From IMG/VR virus record IMGVR_UViG_2872703611_000004: a stretch of DNA of 47,047 bases. One strand, given 5' to 3'. A model generated the notes under the pieces. That model saw nothing but the letters and a program-made list of their open reading frames with translations. It did no database searches and was not told the DNA's origin. Below, piece after piece: positions 1,331 to 47,047 of the stretch (positions are counted from its first letter, which is position 1; every line of letters begins with the position of its first letter). The stretch is from a virus. Lineage: Duplodnaviria; Heunggongvirae; Uroviricota; Caudoviricetes. The position numbers were made by a program, and so were the translations under genes.

Positions 1331-1345
1331 GCTTTTTTATACTAA
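1331..1345. other. attL core (B-O-P' junction) of lambda-type site-specific integration; P' arm continues to about 1420
   Basis: Exact 15-bp core GCTTTTTTATACTAA followed by GTTGGCATTATAAAAAAGCATTGCTTATCAATTTGTTGCAACGAACAGGTCACTATCAGTCAAAATAAAATCATTATTTG, which I recognise as the lambda attP P' arm. Confidence 0.9.
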
Positions 1346-4267: not shown

Positions 4268-4549
4268 TCACCGTTCCTTAAAGACGCCGTTCAACATGCC
4301 GATCGCCAGGCTTAAATGAGTCGGTGTGAATCCCATCAGCGTTACCGTTTCGCGGTGCTTCTTTAGTACGCTACGGCAAATGTCATCGACGTTTTTATCC
4401 GGAAACTGCTGTCTGGCTTTTTTGATTTCAGAATTAGCCTGACGGGCAATGCTGCGAAGGGCGTTTTCTTGCTGAGGTGTCATTGAACAAGCCCCATGTC
4501 GGCAAGCATAAGCACACAGAATATGAAGCCCGCTGCCAGAAAAATGCAT
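4268..4549 (-). CDS. Hypothetical early-left-operon protein in the lambda orf61 position; different length and overlap pattern from lambda orf61; internal start at 4483 possible
   Basis: 93-aa ORF in the leftward operon, 10 nt downstream of the orf63 stop. Confidence 0.55.
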   Translation of the reverse strand: MHFSGSGLHILCAYACRHGACSMTPQQENALRSIARQANSEIKKARQQFPDKNVDDICRSVLKKHRETVTLMGFTPTHLSLAIGMLNGVFKER

Positions 4550-4906: not shown

Positions 4907-5583
4907 CGCCATTGCTCCCCAAATACAAAACCAATTTCAGCCAGTGCCTCGTCCATTTTTTCGATGAACTCCGGCACCATCTCGTCAAAACTCGCCATGT
5001 ACTTTTCATCCCGCTCAACCACGACATAATGCAGGCCTTCACGCTTCATACGCGGGTCATAGTTGGCAAAGTACCAGGCATCTTTTCGCGTCACCCACAT
5101 GCTGTACTGCACCTGGGCCATGTAAGCCGACTTTATGGCCTCGAAACCACCGAGCCGGAACTTCATGAAATCCCGGGAGGTAAACGGGCATTTCAGCTCA
5201 AGGCCATTGCCGTCACTGCATAAACCATCGGGAGAGCAGGCGGTACGCATACTTTCGTCGCGATAGATGATCGGGGATTCAGTAACATTCACGCCGGAAG
5301 TGAATTCAAACAGAGTTCTGGCGTCGTTCTCGTACTGTTTTCCCCATGCCAGCGCCTTAGCATTAACTTCCGGAGCCACACCGGTGCAAACCTCAGCCAG
5401 CAGGGTGTGGAAGTAGGACATTTTCATGTCAGGCCACTTTTTTCCGGAGCGGGGTTTTGCTATCACATTGTGAACTTCTGAAGCGGTGATGACGCCGAGC
5501 CGTAATTTGTGCCACGCATCATCCCCCTGTTCGACAGCTCTCACGTCGATTCCGGTACGCTGCAGGATAATGTCCGGTGTCAT
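4903..5583 (-). CDS. exo: Lambda exonuclease (Red-alpha)
   Basis: 226 aa [65 protein letters not shown]...; near-identical to lambda Exo from memory. Confidence 0.97.
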
Positions 5584-6885: not shown

Positions 6886-7018
6886 TTTTTGGGACTCCTG
6901 GCTGATTAAGTATGTCGATAAGGCGTTTCCATCCGTCACGTAATTTACGGGTGATTCGTTCAAGTAAAGATTCGGAAGGGCAGCCAGCAACAGGCCACCC
7001 TGCAATGGCATATTGCAT
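6854..7018 (-). CDS. cIII: Lambda CIII (FtsH inhibitor, stabilises CII)
   Basis: 54 aa read from the reverse complement: [54 protein letters not shown]; missed by the track because it is under 60 aa. Confidence 0.9.
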   Translation of the reverse strand: MQYAIAGWPVAGCPSESLLERITRKLRDGWKRLIDILNQPGVPKNGSNTYGYPD

Positions 7019-7090
7019 GGTGTGCTCCTTATTTATACATAACGAAAAACGCCTCGAGTGAAGCGTTATTGGTATGCGGTAACGCCGCGC

Positions 7091-11140: not shown

Positions 11141-11838
11141 AAAACATCGCCGCACAGATGGTTAACTTTGACCGTGAGCAGATGCGTCGGATCGCCAACA
11201 ACATGCCGGAACAGTACGACGAAAAGCCACAGGTACAGCAGGTAGCGCAGATCATCAACGGTGTGTTCAGCCAGTTACTGGCAACTTTCCCGGCGAGTCT
11301 GGCTAACCGTGACCAGAACGAACTGAACGAAATCCGCCGCCAGTGGGTTCTGGCTTTCCGGGAAAACGGGATCACCACAATGGAACAGGTTAACGCAGGA
11401 ATGCGCGTAGCCCGTCGGCAGAACCGACCATTCCTGCCATCACCCGGGCAGTTTGTTGCATGGTGCCGGGAAGAAGCATCCGTTATCGCCGGACTGCCAA
11501 ACGTCAGCGAGCTGGTTGATATGGTTTACGAGTATTGCCGGAAGCGAGGCCTGTATCCGGATGCGGAGTCTTATCCGTGGAAATCAAACGCGCACTACTG
11601 GCTGGTTACCAACCTGTATCAGAACATGCGGGCCAATGCGCTTACTGATGCGGAATTACGCCGTAAGGCCGCAGATGAGCTTGTCCATATGACTGCGAGA
11701 ATTAACCGTGGTGAGGCGATCCCTGAACCAGTAAAACAACTTCCTGTCATGGGCGGTAGACCTCTAAATCGTGCACAGGCTCTGGCGAAGATCGCAGAAA
11801 TTAAAGCTAAGTTCGGACTGAAAGGAGCAAGTGTATGA
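11137..11838 (+). CDS. P: Lambda replication protein P (DnaB helicase loader)
   Basis: 233 aa MKNIAAQMVNFDREQMRRIANNMPEQYDEKPQVQQVAQIINGVFSQLLATFPASLANRDQNELNEIRRQWVLAFRENG... Confidence 0.95.
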   Translation: MKNIAAQMVNFDREQMRRIANNMPEQYDEKPQVQQVAQIINGVFSQLLATFPASLANRDQNELNEIRRQWVLAFRENGITTMEQVNAGMRVARRQNRPFLPSPGQFVAWCREEASVIAGLPNVSELVDMVYEYCRKRGLYPDAESYPWKSNAHYWLVTNLYQNMRANALTDAELRRKAADELVHMTARINRGEAIPEPVKQLPVMGGRPLNRAQALAKIAEIKAKFGLKGASV

Positions 11839-12008
11839 TGGGCAAAGAGGCAATTATTCATTACCTGGGGACGCACAAGAGCTTCTGTGCGCCGGACGTT
11901 GCTGCGACAACAGGTGTGACATTAACCAGCATAAATCAGGCTGCGGCAAAAATGGCGCGGGCAGGAATCCTGGTCATTGATGGTAAGGTCTGGCGAACGT
12001 TTGTTTAA
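11835..12008 (+). pseudogene. ren: Truncated ren (57 codons instead of ~96); marks a module junction
   Basis: MMGKEAIIHYLGTHKSFCAPDVAATTGVTLTSINQAAAKMARAGILVIDGKVWRTFV then stop; start overlaps the P stop; sequence after the stop is unrelated. Confidence 0.55.
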
Positions 12009-12649: not shown

Positions 12650-12666
12650 CAAAAAAATTTCATATG

Positions 12667-12693
12667 AACCCAGTTTGCGCTGGGTTTTTTATT
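12667..12693 (+). terminator. Rho-independent terminator after the secreted-protein moron
   Basis: AACCCAG-TTTGCG-CTGGGTT followed by TTTTTTATTT. Confidence 0.75.
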
Positions 12694-13684
12694 TCAGTAG
12701 CCAATAATGCATTCAAAATCTCTTACTTGAGAAACGGCCTATTTGAGATTTCAGTCGTGGCAGGATGATCAGTTGATTCGAGTATTGACGCATTTGCGTT
12801 CGGAGCGATTACAGTAGATTGTAAATAATAATGAGAAACACATAGCCACCCCGTGGTATTGAAACCATATAATGTTGGATTTGAAAACAGATCTTTTCCC
12901 ATGTATTAATAACTACATCCCCGCGAGTGATTCAAAAAGGAGGGCCCAATTTTGTCCGAGTTTTTGTATTCCCCCGCATGCCGCTGCGGAGCACTACATC
13001 TGAGTGTCTGACTAGGGGATAAAATTAGACTGGATAGTGAGAAGAAAGTGGCGCGCTAGGCTGTGCCGAGTGCTACCAGTACACCTTGGGGGTGTGCAGC
13101 TTTCGCCGAGACTGTAGTGGGTATCGGTTAATGCACGAAAAACCGAGAGGTCAGACAACCAATTTGCCGTAGGATTGTTTCCGGTGCGATACCGGTCTAC
13201 TAACTGAAAGCAATGCGAAAAAGCATAAACTCGGTCCTTCAGTCGCCCTACACACTATTTACTAAGAAGGGCTGAAGCATGGATACAATTATTACATGGA
13301 TGGGAGATCGTCTGTTGGGGGGACACAAAAATCCGATCTGCGGCAGATGGCGATCACTGGATTAACTTCCGCGATTTGTTCAACAATTTTGTACACTGAA
13401 AAATTAAAACATGGTGAGCCTATTAACCCAAACGAAGAAGAAAAACTTTATAGGCTTTGGTATGAAGGAAACGCTTGAAAGAATAAAGCACAATTAAAAC
13501 CTTTGATTTGCGATAATCAACTTGCCATAATTAAGTAATCGGAGTCTGAACAACTCCGGTGACTTCTGCGCTAAACGGGGACGTTTATGCGCACATACAA
13601 TCCAAACTATCTTCTCCTTTCACAGATGCAGAAATGCACCTGCAATTCTTTGCATCTAGCGTTTGACCTCTGCGGAGGTGAAGC

Positions 13685-15746: not shown

Positions 15747-16829
15747 TTAGAACTGGTAAACCATACCTACAGCAACGATATCATCGGTAGCAACGCCAGA
15801 TGCTTTCGTGAAATCGCTCTTATCAATCAGGTTGATTTTGTAGTCAACAAAAGTGGACATATTTTTGTTGAAGTAATAGGTTGCACCTACATCAACATAT
15901 TCAACCAGGTCCTGATCACCCCAAACACCCAAGTCTTTTCCTTTAGAATGCAGGTAAGCAACGGATGGACGCAGGCCGAAGTCGAACTGATATTGTGCAA
16001 CAGCTTCGAAGTTTTGTGCTTTGTTGGCAATATGGTTATTACCAAAAACAGTCATGTTCTGGGTTTCAGAATAGGTGGTAGCCAGATAGATGTTGTTCGC
16101 ATCATATTTCAGACCAGCTGCCCATACTTCAGCATTTTGACCAGATGCATTCAGGCTGTTGTTACCGTAGATAACCTGATTATTAGTGCGGTCAGATTTA
16201 GCATAGGTTGCACCTACACCGAATCCTTCATACTCATAAGTAGTGGAGAAACCGAAACCATCACCATTAGCTTCAGTTACGTCAGTGCGGTCATTTTTAC
16301 CCTGATACTGAGCAGCAAAGTTCAGACCATCAACCAGACCAAAGAAGTCATTGTTACGATAAGTTGCAACACCTGTGGTGCGACCAGTCATGAATACATC
16401 TGTTTGGGTCCAGGTATCGCCACCGAATTCTGGCAGAACGTCGGTCCATGCACCAATATCGTATGCTACACCGTAGTTACGGCCATAATCGATGGAGCCG
16501 TAGTCACCGAATTTCAGGCCAGCGAAGGCAAGACGGGTTTTATCTTTGGAGGAACCTTGAGATTCAGCGCGGTTGCCTTTGAATTCATATTCCCACTGAC
16601 CGAAACCAGTCAGTTGATCGTTGATTTGGGTTTCACCTTTGAAGCCAAGACGGGCATAAGTAGTATCACCATCATCTGCATCATTAGAGGAGAAGTAGTG
16701 CTTAGCATTAACTTTCCCGTACAGATCCAGCTTGTTACTGTCTTTATTATAAATTTCAGCTGCCTGAGCAGACATCGCCATCAGTACTGATGCAGCTACA
16801 GCAGAAATTGCCACTGTTAATTTTTTCAT
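15747..16829 (-). CDS. nmpC: Intact general porin of the OmpC/OmpF/PhoE family (NmpC / Lc type), prophage-encoded
   Basis: Signal peptide [23 protein letters not shown], then AEIYNKD...; C-terminal VYQF; start taken at the Met with AGGG 8 nt upstream (track ORF extends to 16889). Confidence 0.9.
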
Positions 16830-17256
16830 CGTGAGCCCTTTTTTTGAACTATTATTAAAAAATGATGTCACTGCGCGATAAATATTCATCTAATCAATGT
16901 GATTATTTCAAGATGTAAGTTTTGGTTTCTCATTTGATTTGTGAAGTAGATCTCTATTTTTATCTGAACTTTTTCTATCGAATCCTATTCATGGCTCTTG
17001 GCTGAATAAAAATAAATCTATTAGCCAATTTATATTAATGGCTGTTATTTATAAGTGCTCTATAATTTGAAGATTCAATTTAAACCAGCTAAAAATAACG
17101 CTGGAAATTATTTGTTGGTTATTTGTTGAGATTTGCTTATGTATTTGTAGTGGTGTTTTCAATACTCGGTAGCATTCTCGCAAATATCATTTAGTGGTTT
17201 ACGTACGTAAAAAATTGGTTATGCTGTTAAGAGTGGTTACTTCGTCACACAGCTTA

Positions 17257-17287
17257 AACCCGCCGTCGAGCGGGTTTTTCCATTTTT
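17257..17287 (+). terminator. Rho-independent terminator upstream of the holin gene (candidate tR'-equivalent)
   Basis: AACCCGC-CGTCGA-GCGGGTT followed by TTTTCCATTTTTT. Confidence 0.5.
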
Positions 17288-17416
17288 TGAGTCTCGATAT
17301 TAGCTGATAACCCAATACCTGAGTTATTCACTGACTCCGAGTCTGTTACGTTTCTGCTTTTTTGCGATACGTTGTATTCCCTCAATTTACACCCGCTTTG
17401 TCTGCGAGGTGGGGTT

Positions 17417-17632
17417 ATGAAATCCATGGATAAGTTAACAACGGGTGTCGCCTATGGCACCTCAGCAGGTAGTGCCGGTTACTGGTTTTTACAGCTGCTC
17501 GATAAAGTCACGCCCTCACAGTGGGCAGCAATAGGTGTGCTGGGTAGCCTGGTATTTGGCCTGCTGACGTACCTGACAAACCTTTATTTCAAGATTAAAG
17601 AAGATAAGCGCAAGGCTGCGAGAGGTGAATAA
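17417..17632 (+). CDS. S: Class II holin of phage 21 type (pinholin) with dual start (antiholin/holin)
   Basis: 71 aa [71 protein letters not shown]; Met1-Lys-Ser-Met4 dual-start motif; two TM segments. Confidence 0.9.
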
Positions 17633-18129
17633 TGCCTCCATCATTACGAAAAGCCGTTGCTGCTGCTATTGGTGGCGGAGCAATTGCTATAGCATCAGTG
17701 TTAATTACTGGCCCAAGTGGTAACGATGGTCTGGAAGGTGTCAGCTACATACCATACAAAGATATTGTTGGTGTATGGACTGTATGTCACGGGCATACAG
17801 GAAAAGACATCATGCTCGGTAAAACGTATACCAAAGCAGAATGCAAAGCCCTCCTGAATAAAGACCTTGCCACGGTCGCCAGACAAATTAACCCGTACAT
17901 CAAAGTCGATATACCGGAAACAATGCGCGGCGCTCTTTACTCATTCGTTTACAACGTGGGTGCTGGCAATTTCAGAACATCGACGCTTCTTCGCAAAATA
18001 AACCAGGGCGATATCAAAGGCGCATGTGATCAGCTACGTCGCTGGACATATGCTGGCGGTAAGCAATGGAAAGGTCTCATGACTCGTCGTGAGATTGAGC
18101 GTGAAATCTGTTTGTGGGGTCAGCAATGA
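17632..18129 (+). CDS. R: SAR endolysin (phage 21 R type lysozyme with N-terminal signal-anchor-release domain)
   Basis: 165 aa [82 protein letters not shown]...; Gly/Ala-rich weakly hydrophobic N-terminal helix. Confidence 0.9.
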
Positions 18130-18593
18130 ACAGAGTAACCGCGATTATCTCCGCTCTGGTTATCTGCATCATCGTCTGCCTGTCATGGGCTGTTAATCAT
18201 TACCGTGATAACGCCATTACCTACAAAGCCCAGCGCGACAAAAATGTCAGAGAACTGAAGCTGGCGAACGCGGCAATTACTGACATGCAGATGCGTCAGC
18301 GTGATGTTGCTGCGCTCGATGCAAAATACACGAAGGAGTTAGCTGATGCGAAAGCTGAAAATGATGCTCTTCTGCGGAAGCTTGATAATGGTGGCAGGGT
18401 GCTCGTCAAAGGAAAATGCCCTGTGCCATCCTCTGCCGAAACCTCCAGCGCCTCCGGCATGGGCAATGATGCCACCGTCGAACTCTCTCCAGTTGCTGGA
18501 CGAAACGTTCTCGATATCCGGGACGGAATTATCCGCGACCAAACAGCACTGAGAACGCTTCAGGAATACATTAGGACGCAATGCCTTCGATGA
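18126..18593 (+). CDS. Rz: Rz i-spanin (N-terminal TM anchor, coiled-coil periplasmic domain)
   Basis: [80 protein letters not shown]...; start overlaps the R stop. Confidence 0.9.
18346..18552 (+). CDS. Rz1: Rz1 o-spanin, outer-membrane lipoprotein embedded in the +1 frame of Rz
   Basis: [44 protein letters not shown]...; lipobox MVAGC, proline-rich mature part, fully inside Rz. Confidence 0.85.
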
Positions 18594-18770
18594 TAGCGAT
18601 AATTTTACTCATCATCCTTCACATCTGGCTCTGTAGACAGGGTGGTGATCACTTCTGGAGTAAATCCAGATTAAACATCTCATTGCTGATGCTTGATATT
18701 GAGCATCTGGCGCGCAGTAAGGGGCTGCGTTGAGATAAGAGCCAGTTCATTACAAATACCAGGATTTAGC

Positions 18771-18797
18771 CTCGCATTCGCGGGGCTTTTTATATCT
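18771..18797 (+). terminator. Candidate terminator downstream of the lysis cassette
   Basis: GCCTCGC-ATTC-GCGGGGC stem (one G-U pair) followed by TTTTTATAT. Confidence 0.35.
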
Positions 18798-18935
18798 GAA
18801 TTTCACAGCGCATCTCACGCGCATATTAACGAGAGCCTTTCAGTAAGCGAGCCTGAGAAATGCCGTTATAGGTGGCGACCTCTCTCGGGCGGCTTTTCTG
18901 TGAGACAGGCTCACTTTCTAAAAGGTAAAGACGCT

Positions 18936-19460
18936 ATGAATAATCATTCAGTTATTCCAGCCTTCGACTTCCGAGAAATGGTGCAAGCCAAAAACGGAGA
19001 GGTCGTTACCACATCCAGAAAAATTGCCAAGTACTTCGGCAAGCGACACGGTGATGTTCTCAGGAAAATCGAGCAGGTTAAGGCTGATTGCTCGCGTGAG
19101 TTTAGCCAACGCAATTTTGCGTCGGCTGATTATATCGATGAGCAGGGCAAGGTTCGCCCGATGTACAGCCTGACGAAAGATGGCTGGATCATGGTTGTGA
19201 TGGGGTTCACCGGGAAAGCTGCTGCGGCAATCAAGGAGAGCTATATCGCAGCATTCAACTGGATGGCAGAACAACTGAGCCGCCGCATGGCAATTGGCGA
19301 AGAAATGCAGCACCGCTACGCCATCAAAGAAACACGCTCAAAGCTGAAAGGTACGATCGGCAGTCGGTTAATGAACGAACGGAAGAAAGAGAAGCGTGTC
19401 CTGGCTGTCGAGCATGAATACATCTTGCAGGTGACACAGCCTGAACTGCTGATTAATTGA
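18936..19460 (+). CDS. Rha-family phage regulatory protein (antirepressor-like)
   Basis: 174 aa from ATG with upstream AAAGG: MNNHSVIPAFDFREMVQAKNGEVVTTSRKIAKYFGKRHGDVLRKIEQ...; the 81 upstream codons of the track ORF lack coding character. Confidence 0.65.
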   Translation: MNNHSVIPAFDFREMVQAKNGEVVTTSRKIAKYFGKRHGDVLRKIEQVKADCSREFSQRNFASADYIDEQGKVRPMYSLTKDGWIMVVMGFTGKAAAAIKESYIAAFNWMAEQLSRRMAIGEEMQHRYAIKETRSKLKGTIGSRLMNERKKEKRVLAVEHEYILQVTQPELLIN

Positions 19461-19671
19461 AGATGTCATTACAAAGCCTATCTACGGGGGGCTTGATAAT
19501 GGCTTATACCCTGCACGGGATAACTTAACTGATATCCCTTTTAACGGATAAAGGTATTCAAGCCTGACACATCATGCGCTGTATCGTCGCCGTATTCCCG
19601 CATTAACCATGACCGTAGGTAACCGGCTCATTTAAACCGTCTGGTCTGTTTCCTCCGGCTCTACAAAAATA

Positions 19672-20349
19672 ATGTCCATCATTTTTAATGGACACTATCG
19701 TATGAAACACCGGACCTGGATCACTGAAGCTTTACGTCTTCACTTTGAAGAACATTTACCCCGGGTTGTGGCCGGGCGTCGCCTGGGTGTACCAAAATCA
19801 ACAGTTTGTAGTATGTTCGTGCGCTTTCGGAGAGCTGGCCTTTCGTGGCCTTTGCCCGCAGGCATGTCGGAGCAGGAACTTGATGCCTGCCTTTACGGAC
19901 AATTTTCCACGGTACCAGTCGTACGTCCTGAAAGCACCGTTATATCCGAAGCCCCCGTGGTAAAAAAACGTCCCCGGCGGCCCAACTTCCCTTATGAGTT
20001 TAAAATCGCCTTAGTGGAGCAGTCACTGCAGCCCGGAGCCTGTGTGGCGCAGATCGCCCGGGAAAACGGAATCAACGATAACCTGCTCTTCAACTGGCGC
20101 CATCAATACCGGAAAGGTGGCCTGCTGCCTTCCGGAAAAAATATGCCGGCACTGCTTCCCGTGACGTTAACGCCGGAGCCGGATAATAAAATCCCGGCCC
20201 CCGCACAGGAACCAGAGCAGATAAATACACCGCCCGACAGTCTGTGTTGTGAGCTGGTTCTGCCGGCCGGAACTCTCAGGCTTAAAGGTAAACTGACGCC
20301 GGCGTTATTACAGACACTTATCCGCGAAATAAAAGGGAGCAGCCACTGA
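19672..20349 (+). CDS. IS66-family accessory protein (orf1/TnpA-like); true start may be Met11
   Basis: 225-aa first ORF of the element; last codons abut the second ORF start (ATGA junction). Confidence 0.6.
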   Translation: MSIIFNGHYRMKHRTWITEALRLHFEEHLPRVVAGRRLGVPKSTVCSMFVRFRRAGLSWPLPAGMSEQELDACLYGQFSTVPVVRPESTVISEAPVVKKRPRRPNFPYEFKIALVEQSLQPGACVAQIARENGINDNLLFNWRHQYRKGGLLPSGKNMPALLPVTLTPEPDNKIPAPAQEPEQINTPPDSLCCELVLPAGTLRLKGKLTPALLQTLIREIKGSSH

Positions 20350-20696
20350 TGATATCTCTCCCTGCAGGTTCGCGTATCTGGCTGGTTGCAGGTATCACCG
20401 ATATGCGAAATGGCTTTAACGGCCTGGCATCAAAAGTTCAGAACGTCCTGAAGGATGACCCGTTCTCCGGACACCTGTTCATCTTCCGCGGACGCCGGGG
20501 TGACCAGATAAAAGTGTTGTGGGCTGACAGTGACGGACTGTGCCTCTTCACCAAACGCCTGGAGCGGGGCCGCTTCGTCTGGCCAGTCACCCGTGACGGC
20601 AAGGTGCACCTTACTCCGGCTCAGTTATCCATGCTTCTTGAAGGTATCAACTGGAAGCACCCGAAACGAACGGAACGCGCTGGAATCCGCATATAA
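20349..20696 (+). CDS. IS66-family Orf2 (TnpB-like)
   Basis: 115 aa MISLPAGSRIWLVAGITDMRNGFNGLASKVQNVLKDDPFSGHLFIFRGRRGDQIKVLWADSDGLCLFTKRLERGRF...; characteristic IS66 orf2 size and motifs. Confidence 0.8.
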   Translation: MISLPAGSRIWLVAGITDMRNGFNGLASKVQNVLKDDPFSGHLFIFRGRRGDQIKVLWADSDGLCLFTKRLERGRFVWPVTRDGKVHLTPAQLSMLLEGINWKHPKRTERAGIRI

Positions 20697-20715
20697 CCCG
20701 TTGTAAAGTGAGGAT

Positions 20716-22287
20716 ATGGACACCTCACTTGCTCATGAGAACGCCCGCCTGCGGGCACTGTTGCAGACGCAACAGGACACCATCCGCCAGATGGCTGAAT
20801 ACAACCGCCTGCTCTCACAGCGGGTGGCGGCTTATGCTTCCGAAATCAACCGGCTGAAGGCGCTGGTTGCGAAACTGCAACGTATGCAGTTCGGTAAAAG
20901 CTCAGAAAAACTTCGTGCAAAAACCGAACGGCAGATACAGGAAGCACAGGAGCGAATCAGCGCACTTCAGGAAGAAATGGCGGAAACGCTGGGTGAGCAA
21001 TATGACCCGGTACTGCCATCCGCCCTGCGCCAGTCTTCAGCCCGTAAACCGTTACCGGCCTCACTTCCCCGTGAAACCCGGGTTATCCGGCCGGAAGAGG
21101 AATGCTGTCCTGCCTGTGGTGGTGAACTCAGTTCTCTGGGATGTGATGTGTCAGAGCAACTGGAGCTTATCAGCAGCGCCTTTAAGGTTATCGAAACACA
21201 ACGTCCGAAACTGGCCTGTTGTCGGTGCGACCATATCGTGCAGGCACCAGTACCTTCAAAACCCATTGCACGCAGTTATGCCGGAGCGGGGCTCCTGGCC
21301 CATGTCGTCACCGGAAAATATGCAGACCATCTGCCGTTATACCGCCAGTCAGAGATATACCGCCGTCAGGGTGTGGAGCTGAGCCGTGCCACACTGGGGC
21401 GCTGGACAGGTGCCGTTGCTGAACTACTGGAGCCGCTGTATGACGTCCTGCGCCAGTATGTGCTGATGCCCGGTAAAGTCCATGCTGATGATATCCCCGT
21501 CCCGGTCCAGGAGCCGGGCAGCGGTAAAACCCGGACAGCCCGGCTGTGGGTCTACGTCCGTGATGACCGTAACGCCGGTTCACAGATGCCCCCGGCGGTC
21601 TGGTTCGCGTACAGTCCGGACCGGAAAGGTATCCATCCACAAAATCACCTGGCCGGTTACAGCGGTGTGCTTCAGGCCGATGCTTACGGTGGTTACCGGG
21701 CGTTATACGAATCCGGCAGAATAACGGAAGCCGCGTGTATGGCTCATGCCCGGAGAAAAATCCACGATGTGCATGCAAGAGCGCCCACCTACATCACCAC
21801 GGAAGCCCTGCAGCGTATCGGTGAACTGTATGCCATCGAGGCAGAGGTCCGGGGCTGTTCAGCAGAACAGCGTCTGGCGGCAAGAAAAGCCAGAGCCGCG
21901 CCACTGATGCAGTCACTGTATGACTGGATACAGCAACAGATGAAAACACTGTCGCGTCACTCAGATACGGCAAAAGCGTTCGCATACCTGCTGAAACAGT
22001 GGGATGCACTGAACGTGTACTGCAGTAATGGCTGGGTGGAAATCGACAACAACATCGCAGAGAACGCCTTACGGGGAGTGGCCGTAGGCCGGAAAAACTG
22101 GATGTTCGCGGGTTCCGACAGCGGTGGTGAACATGCGGCGGTGTTGTACTCGCTGATCGGCACATGCCGTCTGAACAATGTGGAGCCAGAAAAGTGGCTG
22201 CGTTACGTCATTGAACATATCCAGGACTGGCCGGCAAACCGGGTACGCGATCTGTTGCCCTGGAAAGTTGATCTGAGCTCTCAGTAA
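20716..22287 (+). CDS. IS66-family transposase (TnpC)
   Basis: 523 aa; N-terminal leucine-zipper-like region, CxxC...CxxC zinc finger (CCPACGG...CCRCDH), conserved C-terminal catalytic region. Confidence 0.85.
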
Positions 22288-22469
22288 ATATCAATACGGT
22301 TCTGACGAGTCGCTTACGACCGTAGCCCGACGGGGAATTCCTTCTGCGTGAGTGTGCGGGAATAATCAAAAACGATGCACACCGGGTTATTAACGCGTCA
22401 ACTGAACGCGGGGTTGCTCTTCATGTCAGCCAGTCCGGTGCAGGGGTAGAAGAAACCGGACGTTATGGT

Positions 22470-22880
22470 TTAGTGTGGAAACATTTGTGATGTGCTCTGT
22501 ATGTTTTCAGTAAAGAGTAATGAATTATCAAAGGCATAGTAATATCTTTTTTGTTCGTGGATATTTGTAACCCACCGAAAAACTCCTGCTTTAGCAAGGT
22601 TTCTTCTGTATTCCTGAAATGTGATCTCTCTGGATTTCAGCTTATTAGAGGTCGTTTCTATAAGATGCCTATCCTTTGAAAATTTGACAGACACAATGTT
22701 TTTTAGGCCCTTTAATAACACTGTATTATCATTTTTTAATACAATATGAACATTCTCTGTGGCTAAATAGTAAATGTAATGTGAGACATTATGACGTTTT
22801 AGCTCAGAATAAAACCATTGATAGTTTAAATCGTTTCGAACTTTATCAAATATTTGTTTAAAAATGACTACCTGATCCAT
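22470..22880 (-). CDS. ybcV: YbcV-like hypothetical protein (DLP12 pre-cos region type), AT-rich
   Basis: 136 aa from Met with GGAAGG SD: [52 protein letters not shown]...; identification from memory of DLP12 gene order. Confidence 0.55.
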
Positions 22881-22928
22881 AGATAAACCTTCCATGTGAT
22901 ATGAGGGGGGCGTAGTCTGCACGATTAT

Positions 22929-23114
22929 CTAAATTGCTTCAATCTGGTCTGATCTGTTTTCTGAGCACAGTCTCCGGCGGCAGGCTTCAATGACCCAGGC
23001 TGAGAAATTCCCGGACCCTTTTTGATCAAGAGCGATGTTAATTTGTTCAATCATTTGGTTAGGAAAGCGGATGTTGCGGGTTGTTGTTCTGCGGGTTCTG
23101 TTCTTCGTTGACAT
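22929..23114 (-). CDS. ylcI: YlcI-like small protein
   Basis: 61 aa MSTKNRTRRTTTRNIRFPNQMIEQINIALDQKGSGNFSAWVIEACRRRL... Confidence 0.5.
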   Translation of the reverse strand: MSTKNRTRRTTTRNIRFPNQMIEQINIALDQKGSGNFSAWVIEACRRRLCSENRSDQIEAI

Positions 23115-23269
23115 GAGGTTGCCCTGTATTCAGTGTCACTGATTTGTATTGTCTGAAGTTGTTTTTACGTTAAGTTGATGCAGATCAATTAATACGATAC
23201 CTGCGTCATAATTGATTATTTGACGTGGTTTGATGGCGTAGATGCACGTTGTGACATGCAGATGATAAT

Positions 23270-23502
23270 TATTATCATTTTGCGGGTCCTTTCCGGCGAT
23301 CCGACAGGTTACGGGGCGGCGACCTCGCGGGTTTTCGCTATTTATGAAAATTTTCCGGTTTAAGGTGTTTCCGTTCTTCTTCGTCGTAACTTAATGTTTT
23401 TATTTAAAATACCCCCTGAAAAGAAAGGAAACGACAGGTGCTGAAAGCGAGCTTTTTGGCCTCTGTCGTTTCCTTTCTCTGTTTTTGTCCGTGGAATGAA
23501 CA
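23270..23502. other. cos site: cosQ, cosN (12-nt cohesive end GGGCGGCGACCT at 23314-23325) and cosB
   Basis: ...GCGGGTCCTTTCCGGCGATCCGACAGGTTACG | GGGCGGCGACCTCGCGGGTTTTCGCTATTTATGAAAATTTTCCGGTTTAAGG... matches the lambda genome ends; nu1 starts at 23503. Confidence 0.92.
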
Positions 23503-24022
23503 ATGGAAGTCAACAAAAAGCAGCTGGCTGACATTTTCGGTGCGAGTATCCGTACCATTCAGAACTGGCAGGAACAGGGAATGCCCGTTCTGCGAGGCGG
23601 TGGCAAGGGTAATGAGGTGCTTTATGACTCTGCCGCCGTCATAAAATGGTATGCCGAAAGGGATGCTGAAATTGAGAACGAAAAGCTGCGCCGGGAGGTT
23701 GAAGAACTGCGGCAGGCCAGCGAGGCAGATCTCCAGCCAGGGACTATTGAGTACGAACGCCATCGACTTACGCGTGCGCAGGCCGACGCACAGGAACTGA
23801 AGAATGCCAGAGACTCCGCTGAAGTGGTGGAAACCGCATTCTGTACTTTCGTGTTGTCGCGGATCGCAGGTGAAATTGCCAGTATTCTCGACGGGATCCC
23901 CCTGTCGGTGCAGCGGCGTTTTCCGGAACTGGAAAACCGACATGTTGATTTCCTGAAACGGGATATCATCAAAGCCATGAACAAAGCAGCCGCGCTGGAT
24001 GAACTGATACCGGGGTTGCTGA

Positions 24023-46463: not shown

Positions 46464-47047
46464 TGGCATTCAGAATGAGTGAACAACCACGGACCATAAA
46501 AATTTATAATCTGCTGGCCGGAACTAATGAATTTATTGGTGAAGGTGACGCATATATTCCGCCTCATACAGGTCTGCCAGCAAACAGTACCGATATTGCA
46601 CCGCCAGATATTCCGGCTGGCTTTGTGGCTGTTTTCAACAGTGATGAGGCATCGTGGCATCTCGTTGAAGATCATCGGGGAAAAACCGTCTATGACGTGG
46701 CTTCCGGCGACGCGTTATTTATTTCTGAACTTGGCTCGTTACCGGAAAATGTCACCTGGTTATCGCCGGAAGGGGAATATCAGAAGTGGAACGGCACAGC
46801 CTGGGTGAAGGATACGGAAGCAGAAAAACTGTTCCGGATCCGGGAGGCGGAAGAAACAAAAAACAGCCTGATGCAGGTAGCCAGTGAGCATATAGCGCCA
46901 CTTCAGGATGCTGTAGATCTGGAGATCGCAACGGAGGAAGAAACCTCATTGCTGGAAGCCTGGAAAAAATATCGGGTGTTGCTGAACCGTGTTAATACAA
47001 CAACTGCACCGGATATTGAATGGCCAACAGTACCCATTATCGAATAG
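46463..47047 (+). CDS. tfa: Tail fibre assembly protein Tfa (complete, stop at window end)
   Basis: 194 aa [82 protein letters not shown]...; ATG overlaps the stf stop (TAATGG). Confidence 0.92.

Follow-up and report, generated by a model that had tools for sequence, protein, structure and literature searches.

Structure of the inserted element

The window, i.e., the whole stretch of 47,047 bases that was analysed, contains a lambda-like prophage with a complete insertion sequence (IS) in the spacer between a rha-family gene and a convergent DUF1398 gene (Table 1). The stop codon of rha precedes the target by 150 bp, and that of the DUF1398 gene is found 145 bp beyond the right repeat. The element follows S, R, Rz and rha, with cos (23314) lying a further 997 bp downstream, which bears out its placement between the lysis genes and cos by an earlier, sequence-only reading of this DNA. 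Its G+C content is 55%, that of its flanks 46-48%.

Table 1. Features of the inserted element and of the surrounding prophage (window positions). L001 is a sequence with the empty site; L032 is a public contig described in the text.
Feature	Position	Strand	Evidence
attL core GCTTTTTTATACTAA, adjoining ybhC (lambda attachment site)	1331..1345	+	ybhC and int annotation in sister strain
rha-family gene, last phage gene upstream	18936..19460	+	Pfam Phage_pRha; identical gene annotated in L001
Left target-site duplication copy, GACCGTAG, 8 bp	19611..19618	.	single copy at empty site in L001
Complete ISCro1-type IS66-family insertion sequence, 2,699 bp	19619..22317	+	99.9% identity to ISCro1-family copies; L032 collinear
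Left terminal inverted repeat (IRL), begins GTAACCGG	19619..19640	+	repeat search; IS-free prophage homology ends at 19618
tnpA, 225 aa accessory protein, helix-turn-helix domain	19672..20349	+	Pfam HTH_Tnp_1, E 8.5e-15
tnpB, 115 aa IS66-type accessory protein	20349..20696	+	Pfam TnpB_IS66, E 4.7e-40
tnpC, 523 aa DDE transposase	20716..22287	+	Pfam DDE_Tnp_IS66, E 2.5e-103, profile positions 1-283 of 284
Right terminal inverted repeat (IRR), inward reading GTAAGCGA	22296..22317	-	repeat search
Right target-site duplication copy, GACCGTAG, 8 bp	22318..22325	.	exact match to left copy
DUF1398 gene, convergent with element	22470..22880	-	Pfam DUF1398; annotated in L001
cos cohesive-end sequence GGGCGGCGACCT	23314..23325	+	exact match

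The terminal inverted repeats are imperfect (22 nt, GTAA...TTAC), with 16 of 22 positions being complementary (73%). Inverted repeats that start with GTAA are reportedly a signature of the IS66 family. Directly outside of the termini, both flanks show the same 8-mer, and a target duplication of 8 bp is a reported IS66 hallmark (PMC6778807). Perfect 8-bp repeats also border four of the five other ISCro1 copies examined (GGGAATAA, GGGGTTAC, TGATGGCG, CTGGCTTT). When considering both strands of the window, GACCGTAG occurs only twice, i.e., at the two element flanks. Furthermore, only one of 44,332 window positions has an 8-mer that equals the one 2,707 bases away, namely this repeat. The probability that 8 bases abutting two defined termini are identical by chance is 4^-8, i.e., about 1.5e-5.

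Homology to IS-free prophages ends exactly at 19618 and restarts at 22318. Beside this, L032, which is exactly 2,699 bp long, is collinear with the element from the first to the last base (12 substitutions, no indels). Both the breakpoints and the end-to-end collinearity confirm the element termini independently. The 2699-bp three-ORF element with imperfect inverted repeats and a perfect 8-bp direct repeat had already been delimited from the letters with exact coordinates.

All three encoded proteins score above curated Pfam and NCBIfam cut-offs, which upholds the earlier assignment to the IS66 family. For NCBIfam, TnpA reaches 294 bits with IS66_access_TnpA (cut-off 150, residues 13-206), TnpB 129 bits with IS66_TnpB (cut-off 50), and TnpC 479.5 bits with transpos_IS66 (cut-off 180). 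Further domains of TnpC are zf-IS66 (zinc finger), LZ_Tnp_IS66 (leucine zipper) and DDE_Tnp_IS66_C. We thus find a TnpC-type DDE transposase, tnpA and tnpB preceding tnpC in the same direction, a tnpB start that overlaps the tnpA stop (TGATG), imperfect GTAA inverted repeats of 22 nt, and an 8-bp target-site duplication. Judged by these sequence features, the element is an IS66-family insertion sequence. None of the tnpA, tnpB and tnpC ORFs is truncated, and a fresh duplication borders the copy on either side. With an alternative start at codon 11, TnpA has 215 aa, and the gene is annotated in this way in one sister strain.

IS66 is the prototype of the family and IS679 its functionally studied member. 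With both, the element shares the tnpA-tnpB-tnpC layout including the translational overlap of tnpA and tnpB, the DDE transposase with zinc finger and leucine zipper, the GTAA inverted repeats, the 8-bp target duplication and a size of about 2.5-2.7 kb. Nevertheless, it is a different member, whose TnpA has an additional region at the N-terminus and is therefore long (215-225 aa).

Identity and distribution of the element

On the DNA level, the element is 99.9% identical over its full length to RefSeq copies labelled "IS66-like element ISCro1 family", with which it also shares length, gene order and the 8-bp duplication. Relative to the RefSeq proteins of the ISCro1-family copy of APEC17, TnpB is fully identical (115/115, WP_000624622.1), while 522/523 residues agree for TnpC (WP_000381395.1, annotated 'ISCro1 family transposase') and 223/225 for TnpA (WP_001682408.1). 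Only 3 nucleotides differ between the window element and the copy in sister strain 120899. Compared to the nearest sister-strain copy, the window element shows two amino-acid differences, namely TnpA P188 and TnpC G380. A copy from Citrobacter sp. (L011) is 94.7% identical.

ISCro1 was named from Citrobacter rodentium ICC168 and is widespread on E. coli chromosomes and plasmids. Counting a copy when at least 80% of the element is covered, we find full-length copies in 1,492 of 5,426 complete E. coli genomes and in about 1,400 plasmids, and there are 14,163 ISCro1-matching places across the collection. The exact left-end 26-mer matched no Citrobacter rodentium contig in the species-representative collection, a BLAST of the first 50 kb of pCROD1 revealed no copy of the element, and the annotation table of pCROD2 holds no IS66-type gene. 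Since one paper gives a length of 2,824 bp for 'ISCro1' (PMC8764528), the isoform name is a probable one that rests on the RefSeq annotation. The element is a known one, present as an intact, ordinary copy in a new and probably recent insertion site. Only the site is new, and it is found in none of the complete RefSeq E. coli genomes.

Host prophage and empty site

The surrounding prophage has the cos site of lambda as well as terminase and head genes of the lambda type, and it is integrated at attB between ybhC and ybhB, with the attR core adjoining ybhB in the sister strain. Linear Lambdavirus records begin at window position 23313/23314, and the head genes are 98% identical to those of Lambdavirus phages with genomes of 44.6-48.2 kb. 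Because the right end is outside of the window, the prophage length was estimated via the sister strain (attL at 1331, attR from the sister strain), which gives about 47,762 bp including the IS and about 45,055 bp for an IS-free form. Within the window prophage, the ren gene is truncated and ynfO shows a 58-bp deletion. In sister strains, the same prophage carries IS100 in the replication gene, ISEc47 in ybcN, and both ISCro1 and a second IS66-family element in rha.

The same prophage is IS-free at this site in the enterotoxigenic E. coli (ETEC) strains 120899, 103605, 204446, ETEC-2265 and 602354. Compared to these sister prophages, the left 19.6 kb are 100.0% identical and the right 24.7 kb 99.6-99.7%. 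Their empty site is one continuous GACCGTAG within an unbroken CCATGACCGTAGCCCGACGG. The comparison with IS-free homologous prophages, which the sequence-only reading had proposed as a check, thus confirms the empty site and agrees with a simple transposition into an intergenic site. Around the target, a segment of 160 bp is continuous in 2,827 genomes. None of the 5,426 complete RefSeq E. coli genomes shows the exact occupied site, such that the insertion rests on a single assembly.

The longest stop-to-stop frame across the target has 49 codons, and IS-free relatives have no annotated CDS at this place. This is in accordance with the earlier view that no phage ORF is disrupted, and a hidden small ORF was rejected on the same grounds. 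We also rejected a hidden RNA gene, as Rfam was empty at the site (permissive E-value over 17000-24000, gathering thresholds over the whole window). At the empty site, there is a small stem (CCGT...ACGG), and TATTCCCGCA / TGCGGGAATA form an inverted repeat of about 10-11 bp. A hairpin or REP-like target structure was rejected since the fold of 161 nt is no better than that of shuffled sequences (z -0.15), and the idea of structure-directed targeting was dropped for this reason.

Mode of arrival and effect on the phage

We assign a probability of roughly 0.9 to a recent transposition of ISCro1 into non-coding DNA of the lambda-like prophage, in an E. coli closely related to the ETEC set and probably with neutral outcome. 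Here, an intact copy would have moved into the spacer between rha and the convergent DUF1398 gene, at a time that we infer to be recent. TnpC would have cut the two strands at GACCGTAG with a stagger of 8 bp, and repair of the gaps would have duplicated the 8-mer. From what is known of the family, TnpA and TnpB presumably helped. Several near-identical copies reside on the chromosome or plasmids of the lineage, and one of these is the most likely donor. The insertion matters little beyond bookkeeping. As a recent lineage-specific event, it could serve as a strain-typing marker within the ETEC-related lineage, and it adds one case to the accumulation of IS elements in prophages.

An insertion that cripples the phage, i.e., through polarity affecting the head and tail genes or through an over-long genome, with a prophage heading to decay, is improbable in our view. 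It is true that the single late transcription unit holds the element and is lengthened by 2,707 bp, that the sister-strain prophage is riddled with IS elements (see above), which suggests relaxed selection, and that both the truncated ren and the ynfO deletion of the window prophage count for decay. However, the estimated 47.8 kb are below the 48,502 bp of wild-type lambda and within the 44.6-48.2 kb Lambdavirus range, such that the genome is unlikely to be pushed toward the packaging limit, as had been suspected. The likewise suspected polarity on late transcription is unlikely, too, given that the + (sense) strand of the element showed no terminator-like site. Lambda-type late transcription is Q-antiterminated, and it is established for lambda that Q-modified polymerase ignores terminators. 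Since the element is oriented as the late genes, Q-antiterminated late transcription should read through it. Furthermore, no structural, lysis or packaging gene of the window is interrupted.

Lambdoid phages that carry IS elements have also been deposited as phage records, e.g., with ISEc8 in Stx2 phages and with ISCro1 in PPwrbA_EC3734. The ISEc8 copy in Stx2 phage 1717 is comparable in being an IS66-family element inside a lambdoid genome that is still recognised as a phage, but it is only about 71% identical to the window element, and this over part of tnpC only, and occupies other positions. Taken together, the insertion is probably neutral for the phage: no gene is interrupted, the orientation is that of the late genes, and the genome should still be packageable. 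As the packaging and polarity concerns probably do not apply, the prophage is not to be written off as defective over this element.

Possible target preference

A further reading, which we regard as doubtful, is that ISCro1 prefers the short spacer directly before cos in lambda-like prophages as a target, rather than this spacer being hit by chance and tolerating the insertion. Separate same-orientation insertions of ISCro1 into the spacer are found in four lineages. Beside the window, these are APEC17, with an independent insertion 40 bp downstream (repeat GGGAATAA), 64EVA, with one about 66 bp downstream (repeat GGGGTTAC), and the F5505-C1 group, with one about 290 bp upstream. On the other hand, the rha gene of strain 602354 holds a fifth copy close by, and this one shows the opposite orientation. 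The spacer segment is moreover very common (5,322 places in the collection). Combining these with the ISCro1-matching places given above, a rough, uniform expectation is about 0.4 hits in the collection compared to 2 observed, i.e., a weak enrichment that was noticed after the fact.

Concerning sequence, C is found two bases outside of the duplication in 25 of 40 left-end flanks (binomial p 6e-7); this count refers to left-end flanks (n=40), with right-hand flanks amounting to n=5 only. The window target itself shows A and not C at this position (-10), and its local fold, being no better than shuffled sequence, does not point to a preferred target either. In addition, prophages gather IS elements generally because insertions are tolerated there (PMC3072379). 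It is only a slim prospect that the spacer of about 350 bp, from the post-lysis accessory gene (rha or kilA-N) to the DUF1398 gene, forms a regional ISCro1 hotspot, which might be linked to the weak sequence preference for C two bases outside of the duplicated 8-mer. If true, this would be the first target-choice rule for an IS66-family element.

Very improbable is that, instead of by simple transposition, the element arrived through a rearrangement or homologous recombination involving several IS copies, or that it is an assembly artefact: near-identical copies that could recombine or confuse assemblers are frequent in the lineage (6-11 places per sister-strain chromosome) and the related F5505-C1 copy is without matching duplication, but the flanks of the window element are collinear to the base with the sister-strain empty site, a perfect 8-bp duplication, seen nowhere else in the window, directly adjoins its two ends, recombination between two IS copies would leave flanking 8-mers that differ and rearrange the neighbourhood, as has been described for IS66 (PMC6778807), and a target duplication is not something that misassembly would create.

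Finally, every match to the empty site shows 58 extra bases. Their interpretation as a deletion at the insertion point was rejected, as they reflect an unrelated deletion of the window that is located about 630 bp rightward.

Identity and boundaries of the inserted element

The window carries a known ISCro1-type IS66-family element at a new, recent insertion site in a lambda-like prophage of ETEC-related E. coli. The 2,699 bases between the direct repeats start with GTAACCGGCTCATTTAAACCGT, end with ACGGTTCTGACGAGTCGCTTAC and are filled by three plus-strand ORFs, where tnpA and tnpB share one base in a TGATG stop/start overlap. The tnpA product matches Pfam HTH_Tnp_1, the tnpB product TnpB_IS66 (E 4.7e-40) and the tnpC product the full set of LZ_Tnp_IS66, zf-IS66, DDE_Tnp_IS66 (E 2.5e-103, profile 1-283 of 284) and DDE_Tnp_IS66_C. 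All three also score well over the cut-off of the NCBIfam equivalogs, i.e., IS66_access_TnpA, IS66_TnpB and transpos_IS66.

In nucleotide sequence, the element shares 99.9% identity over its entire length with many copies annotated in RefSeq as "IS66-like element ISCro1 family". From a copy in the sister strain 120899, it differs at three nucleotides, two of which are non-synonymous changes. Given its full-length ORFs, the element copy looks intact by sequence. ISCro1, a member of the IS66 family, has expanded in Citrobacter rodentium (PMC3072379) and is present in E. coli ST131 (PMC8764528). Copies with at least 80% coverage are found in 1,492 of 5,426 complete E. coli genomes (chromosomes and plasmids) as well as in about 1,400 plasmid records. 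RefSeq annotations start tnpA either at the first ATG or at the ATG of codon 11; the first ATG is enclosed by a 7-bp stem (TGTCCAT ... ATGGACA, 8-nt loop), predicted by eye.

Features of the prophage and the element (window coordinates unless a locus is named; protein identities refer to the RefSeq proteins annotated in the ISCro1 copy of strain APEC17)
Feature	Position	Strand	Remark
att core GCTTTTTTATACTAA (lambda)	1331-1345		followed by int, xis
cIII thermoregulator RNA (RF01804)	6973-7031	-	at cIII start
ren, truncated	11835-12008	+	57 aa
ORF-poor stretch	12650-13587		~940 bp
OmpC-type porin gene	15747-16889	-
rha stop codon	ends 19460		150 bp before element
8-bp direct repeat GACCGTAG	19611-19618 and 22318-22325		sequence reading of 19400-22500 and scripted coordinate check
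tnpA	19672-20349	+	225 aa; 223/225 identical to WP_001682408.1
Predicted stem at tnpA start	19673-19694
tnpB	20349-20696	+	115 aa; 115/115 identical to WP_000624622.1
tnpC	20716-22287	+	523 aa; 522/523 identical to WP_000381395.1
DUF1398 gene	22470-22880	-	convergent with element; stop 145 bp beyond it
YlcI/YnfO-family gene	22929-23114	-	61 aa
58-bp loss, junction	22956/22957		retained TTTTCTGAGCA copy at 22957-22967
Cohesive-end sequence GGGCGGCGACCT (lambda)	23314
IS009 (RF02111)	46806-47004	+	full-length match
IS insertions of strain 602354	L003 12241-14042, 17631-20056, 25569-30579

The element ends form 22-nt inverted arms with 73% complementarity (repeat finder). When searching both strands of the window, GACCGTAG occurs only twice, and no 8-mer match at a spacing of 2,707 bases is found in the window besides the element's flanks. 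The chance identity of two 8-mers abutting defined termini is about 1.5e-5. A scan of species-representative genomes with the 26-base left end yielded a contig from a Clostridiales MAG bin (L032) whose length is exactly 2,699 bp and which aligns collinearly with the whole element. L032 resembles a collapsed assembly repeat and backs the element termini independently. This contig (SFGJ01000083.1, 'Clostridiales bacterium' MAG) is just the element, and a contig of another gut MAG (L012, 'Segatella copri') holds the same Enterobacteriaceae IS; both MAGs are unrelated to Enterobacteriaceae, and both contigs are almost certainly mis-binned repeats.

Insertion site and its empty counterpart

The window starts within ybhC, and its gene order equals that of the annotated sister prophage. 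The genes exo-bet-gam-kil-cIII, cI-like repressor, cro, cII, O, P, nin region and Q are followed by an OmpC-like porin gene on the opposite strand and then by S, R, Rz and rha. Linear Lambdavirus records start at the first base of the cohesive-end sequence, after which Nu1 and A come next. The order of S-R-Rz-rha, element and cos thus places the insertion between the lysis genes and cos. No stop-to-stop frame spanning the target exceeds 49 codons, IS-free relatives show no CDS annotation at the target, and no Rfam family matches there.

For the empty-site query, we joined the flanks through one 8-mer copy; the two long flanks were searched as well. The matched ETEC strains (120899, 103605, 204446, ETEC-2265, 504237 and 602354) all carry the same prophage, with 100.0% identity to the left 19.6 kb and 99.6-99.7% to the right 24.7 kb of the window. 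In the alignment, the prophage of strain 120899 (L001) is uninterrupted at the target (...CATTAACCATGACCGTAGCCCGACGGGGAATTCC...) and shows GACCGTAG once, and homology to IS-free prophages breaks off exactly at 19618. The 160-bp target segment is intact in 2,827 genomes, and the exact occupied junction is found in 0 of the 5,426 complete E. coli genomes, which suggests that the insertion is recent and confined to the source strain or a small clade around it. ISCro1 is present at 6-11 places per sister-strain chromosome, plus plasmid copies, and these sister-lineage copies are plausible donors.

A sequence-only reading had proposed an IS66-family element between the lysis genes and cos, flanked by this 8-bp repeat and disrupting no phage ORF, and had suggested a comparison with IS-free homologous prophages. 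Family models, scripted repeat coordinates with an 8-mer unique to both ends, gene order, short target frames and the single-copy empty site agree with it throughout, i.e., its identification of the element was right.

Mode of insertion and target choice

An ordinary DDE-transposase insertion is the best-supported account. Here, the transposase would insert the element by an 8-bp staggered cut, and gap repair would duplicate the target 8-mer. An 8-bp duplication is a hallmark of the IS66 family (PMC6778807), and perfect ones are found for 4/5 other ISCro1 copies examined (GGGAATAA, GGGGTTAC, TGATGGCG, CTGGCTTT); the F5505-C1 copy shows no matching duplication (GAACTGAG vs. GACTGATG).

It is unlikely that the target spacer is a preferred ISCro1 site. 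In other lambda-like prophages, ISCro1 copies in the same orientation do lie 40 bp downstream of the window's site in APEC17 (L002 5461-8159), about 66 bp downstream in 64EVA (L006 2220-4918) and about 290 bp upstream in the F5505-C1 group of O25 ETEC (L005 2220-4918), but the copy within rha of strain 602354, in which a second IS66-family element is nested (L003 ~25.5-30.7 kb), has the opposite orientation. With the 160-bp segment at 5,322 places and 14,163 ISCro1-matching places in the same collection, a rough estimate gives about 0.4 hits expected by chance vs. 2 observed, i.e., a weak enrichment in a comparison drawn up only after the first case had been seen. Furthermore, the local fold at the target is unremarkable. 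Among 40 distinct left-end flanks (the window, L002-L006 and L007-L041, the latter mostly contig ends of Escherichia sp. MOD1-EC7003), 25 show C at -10, two bases outside the duplication (binomial p ~6e-7, mostly one genome). Weaker biases towards G at -8, T at -6 and A or T at -3 fall within the 8-mer. The window's own site, however, has A at -10. The C(-10) bias, seen in left flanks only, may reflect a target preference and is a lead rather than a finding.

Arrival through recombination between IS copies, or a misassembly, is highly improbable, since neither would produce a perfect, unique duplication between flanks that are still collinear.

Suggested consequences of the insertion for the phage

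On the prophage of strain 602354, the window ends where the tail-fibre assembly gene ends, and the attR core follows after another 2,046 bp, adjoining ybhB. Given the same right end, the prophage would measure 47,762 bp with and 45,055 bp without the element. Its head genes are 98% identical to those of Lambdavirus phages of 44.6-48.2 kb. Wild-type lambda has 48,502 bp and packages up to roughly 105% of its own length. At about 98.5% of lambda length, the genome is thus not near the limit, in contrast to the earlier suggestion that the element pushes it there. Polarity on late transcription, the other hedged consequence, likewise appears unlikely: the element genes run in the direction of the late genes, a consensus scan found no terminator-like site on the plus strand within the element, and Q antitermination makes late transcription of the lambda type pass through terminators. 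The insertion is probably neutral for the phage. As a side effect, late transcription should read tnpA, tnpB and tnpC in sense during lytic growth.

Further observations on the prophage

Strain 120899 and others carry IS100 upstream of rha (L001 1036-2837). In strain 602354 (L003), IS100 sits within the replication gene O and ISEc47 within ybcN, and rha contains the nested IS66-family pair. The window has none of these insertions, i.e., the IS pattern of the prophage differs strain by strain.

The cIII thermoregulator RNA (88.5 bits vs. 50) fits a close lambda relative. The IS009 match (225 bits vs. a gathering score of 117) sits within the tail-fibre assembly gene at the window end. For the truncated ren, the annotation of the sister strain gives a frameshift; the ORF-poor stretch downstream of it contains no ORF above 60 aa and is unannotated in relatives. 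The porin gene, located after the Q antiterminator gene and ahead of the lysis genes, is similar to nmpC of DLP12. Just past the window end, a diguanylate cyclase gene separates the tail-fibre genes from attR in the sister strain; both genes are likely cargo.

Finally, the window lacks 58 bp present in all close relatives (L001 ~4340-4397). The missing segment lies between two TTTTCTGAGCA copies, an arrangement that is the pattern of a putative slippage-type deletion. The loss shifts the reading frame and gives the YlcI/YnfO-family protein, which has 77 aa in relatives, a different C-terminus.
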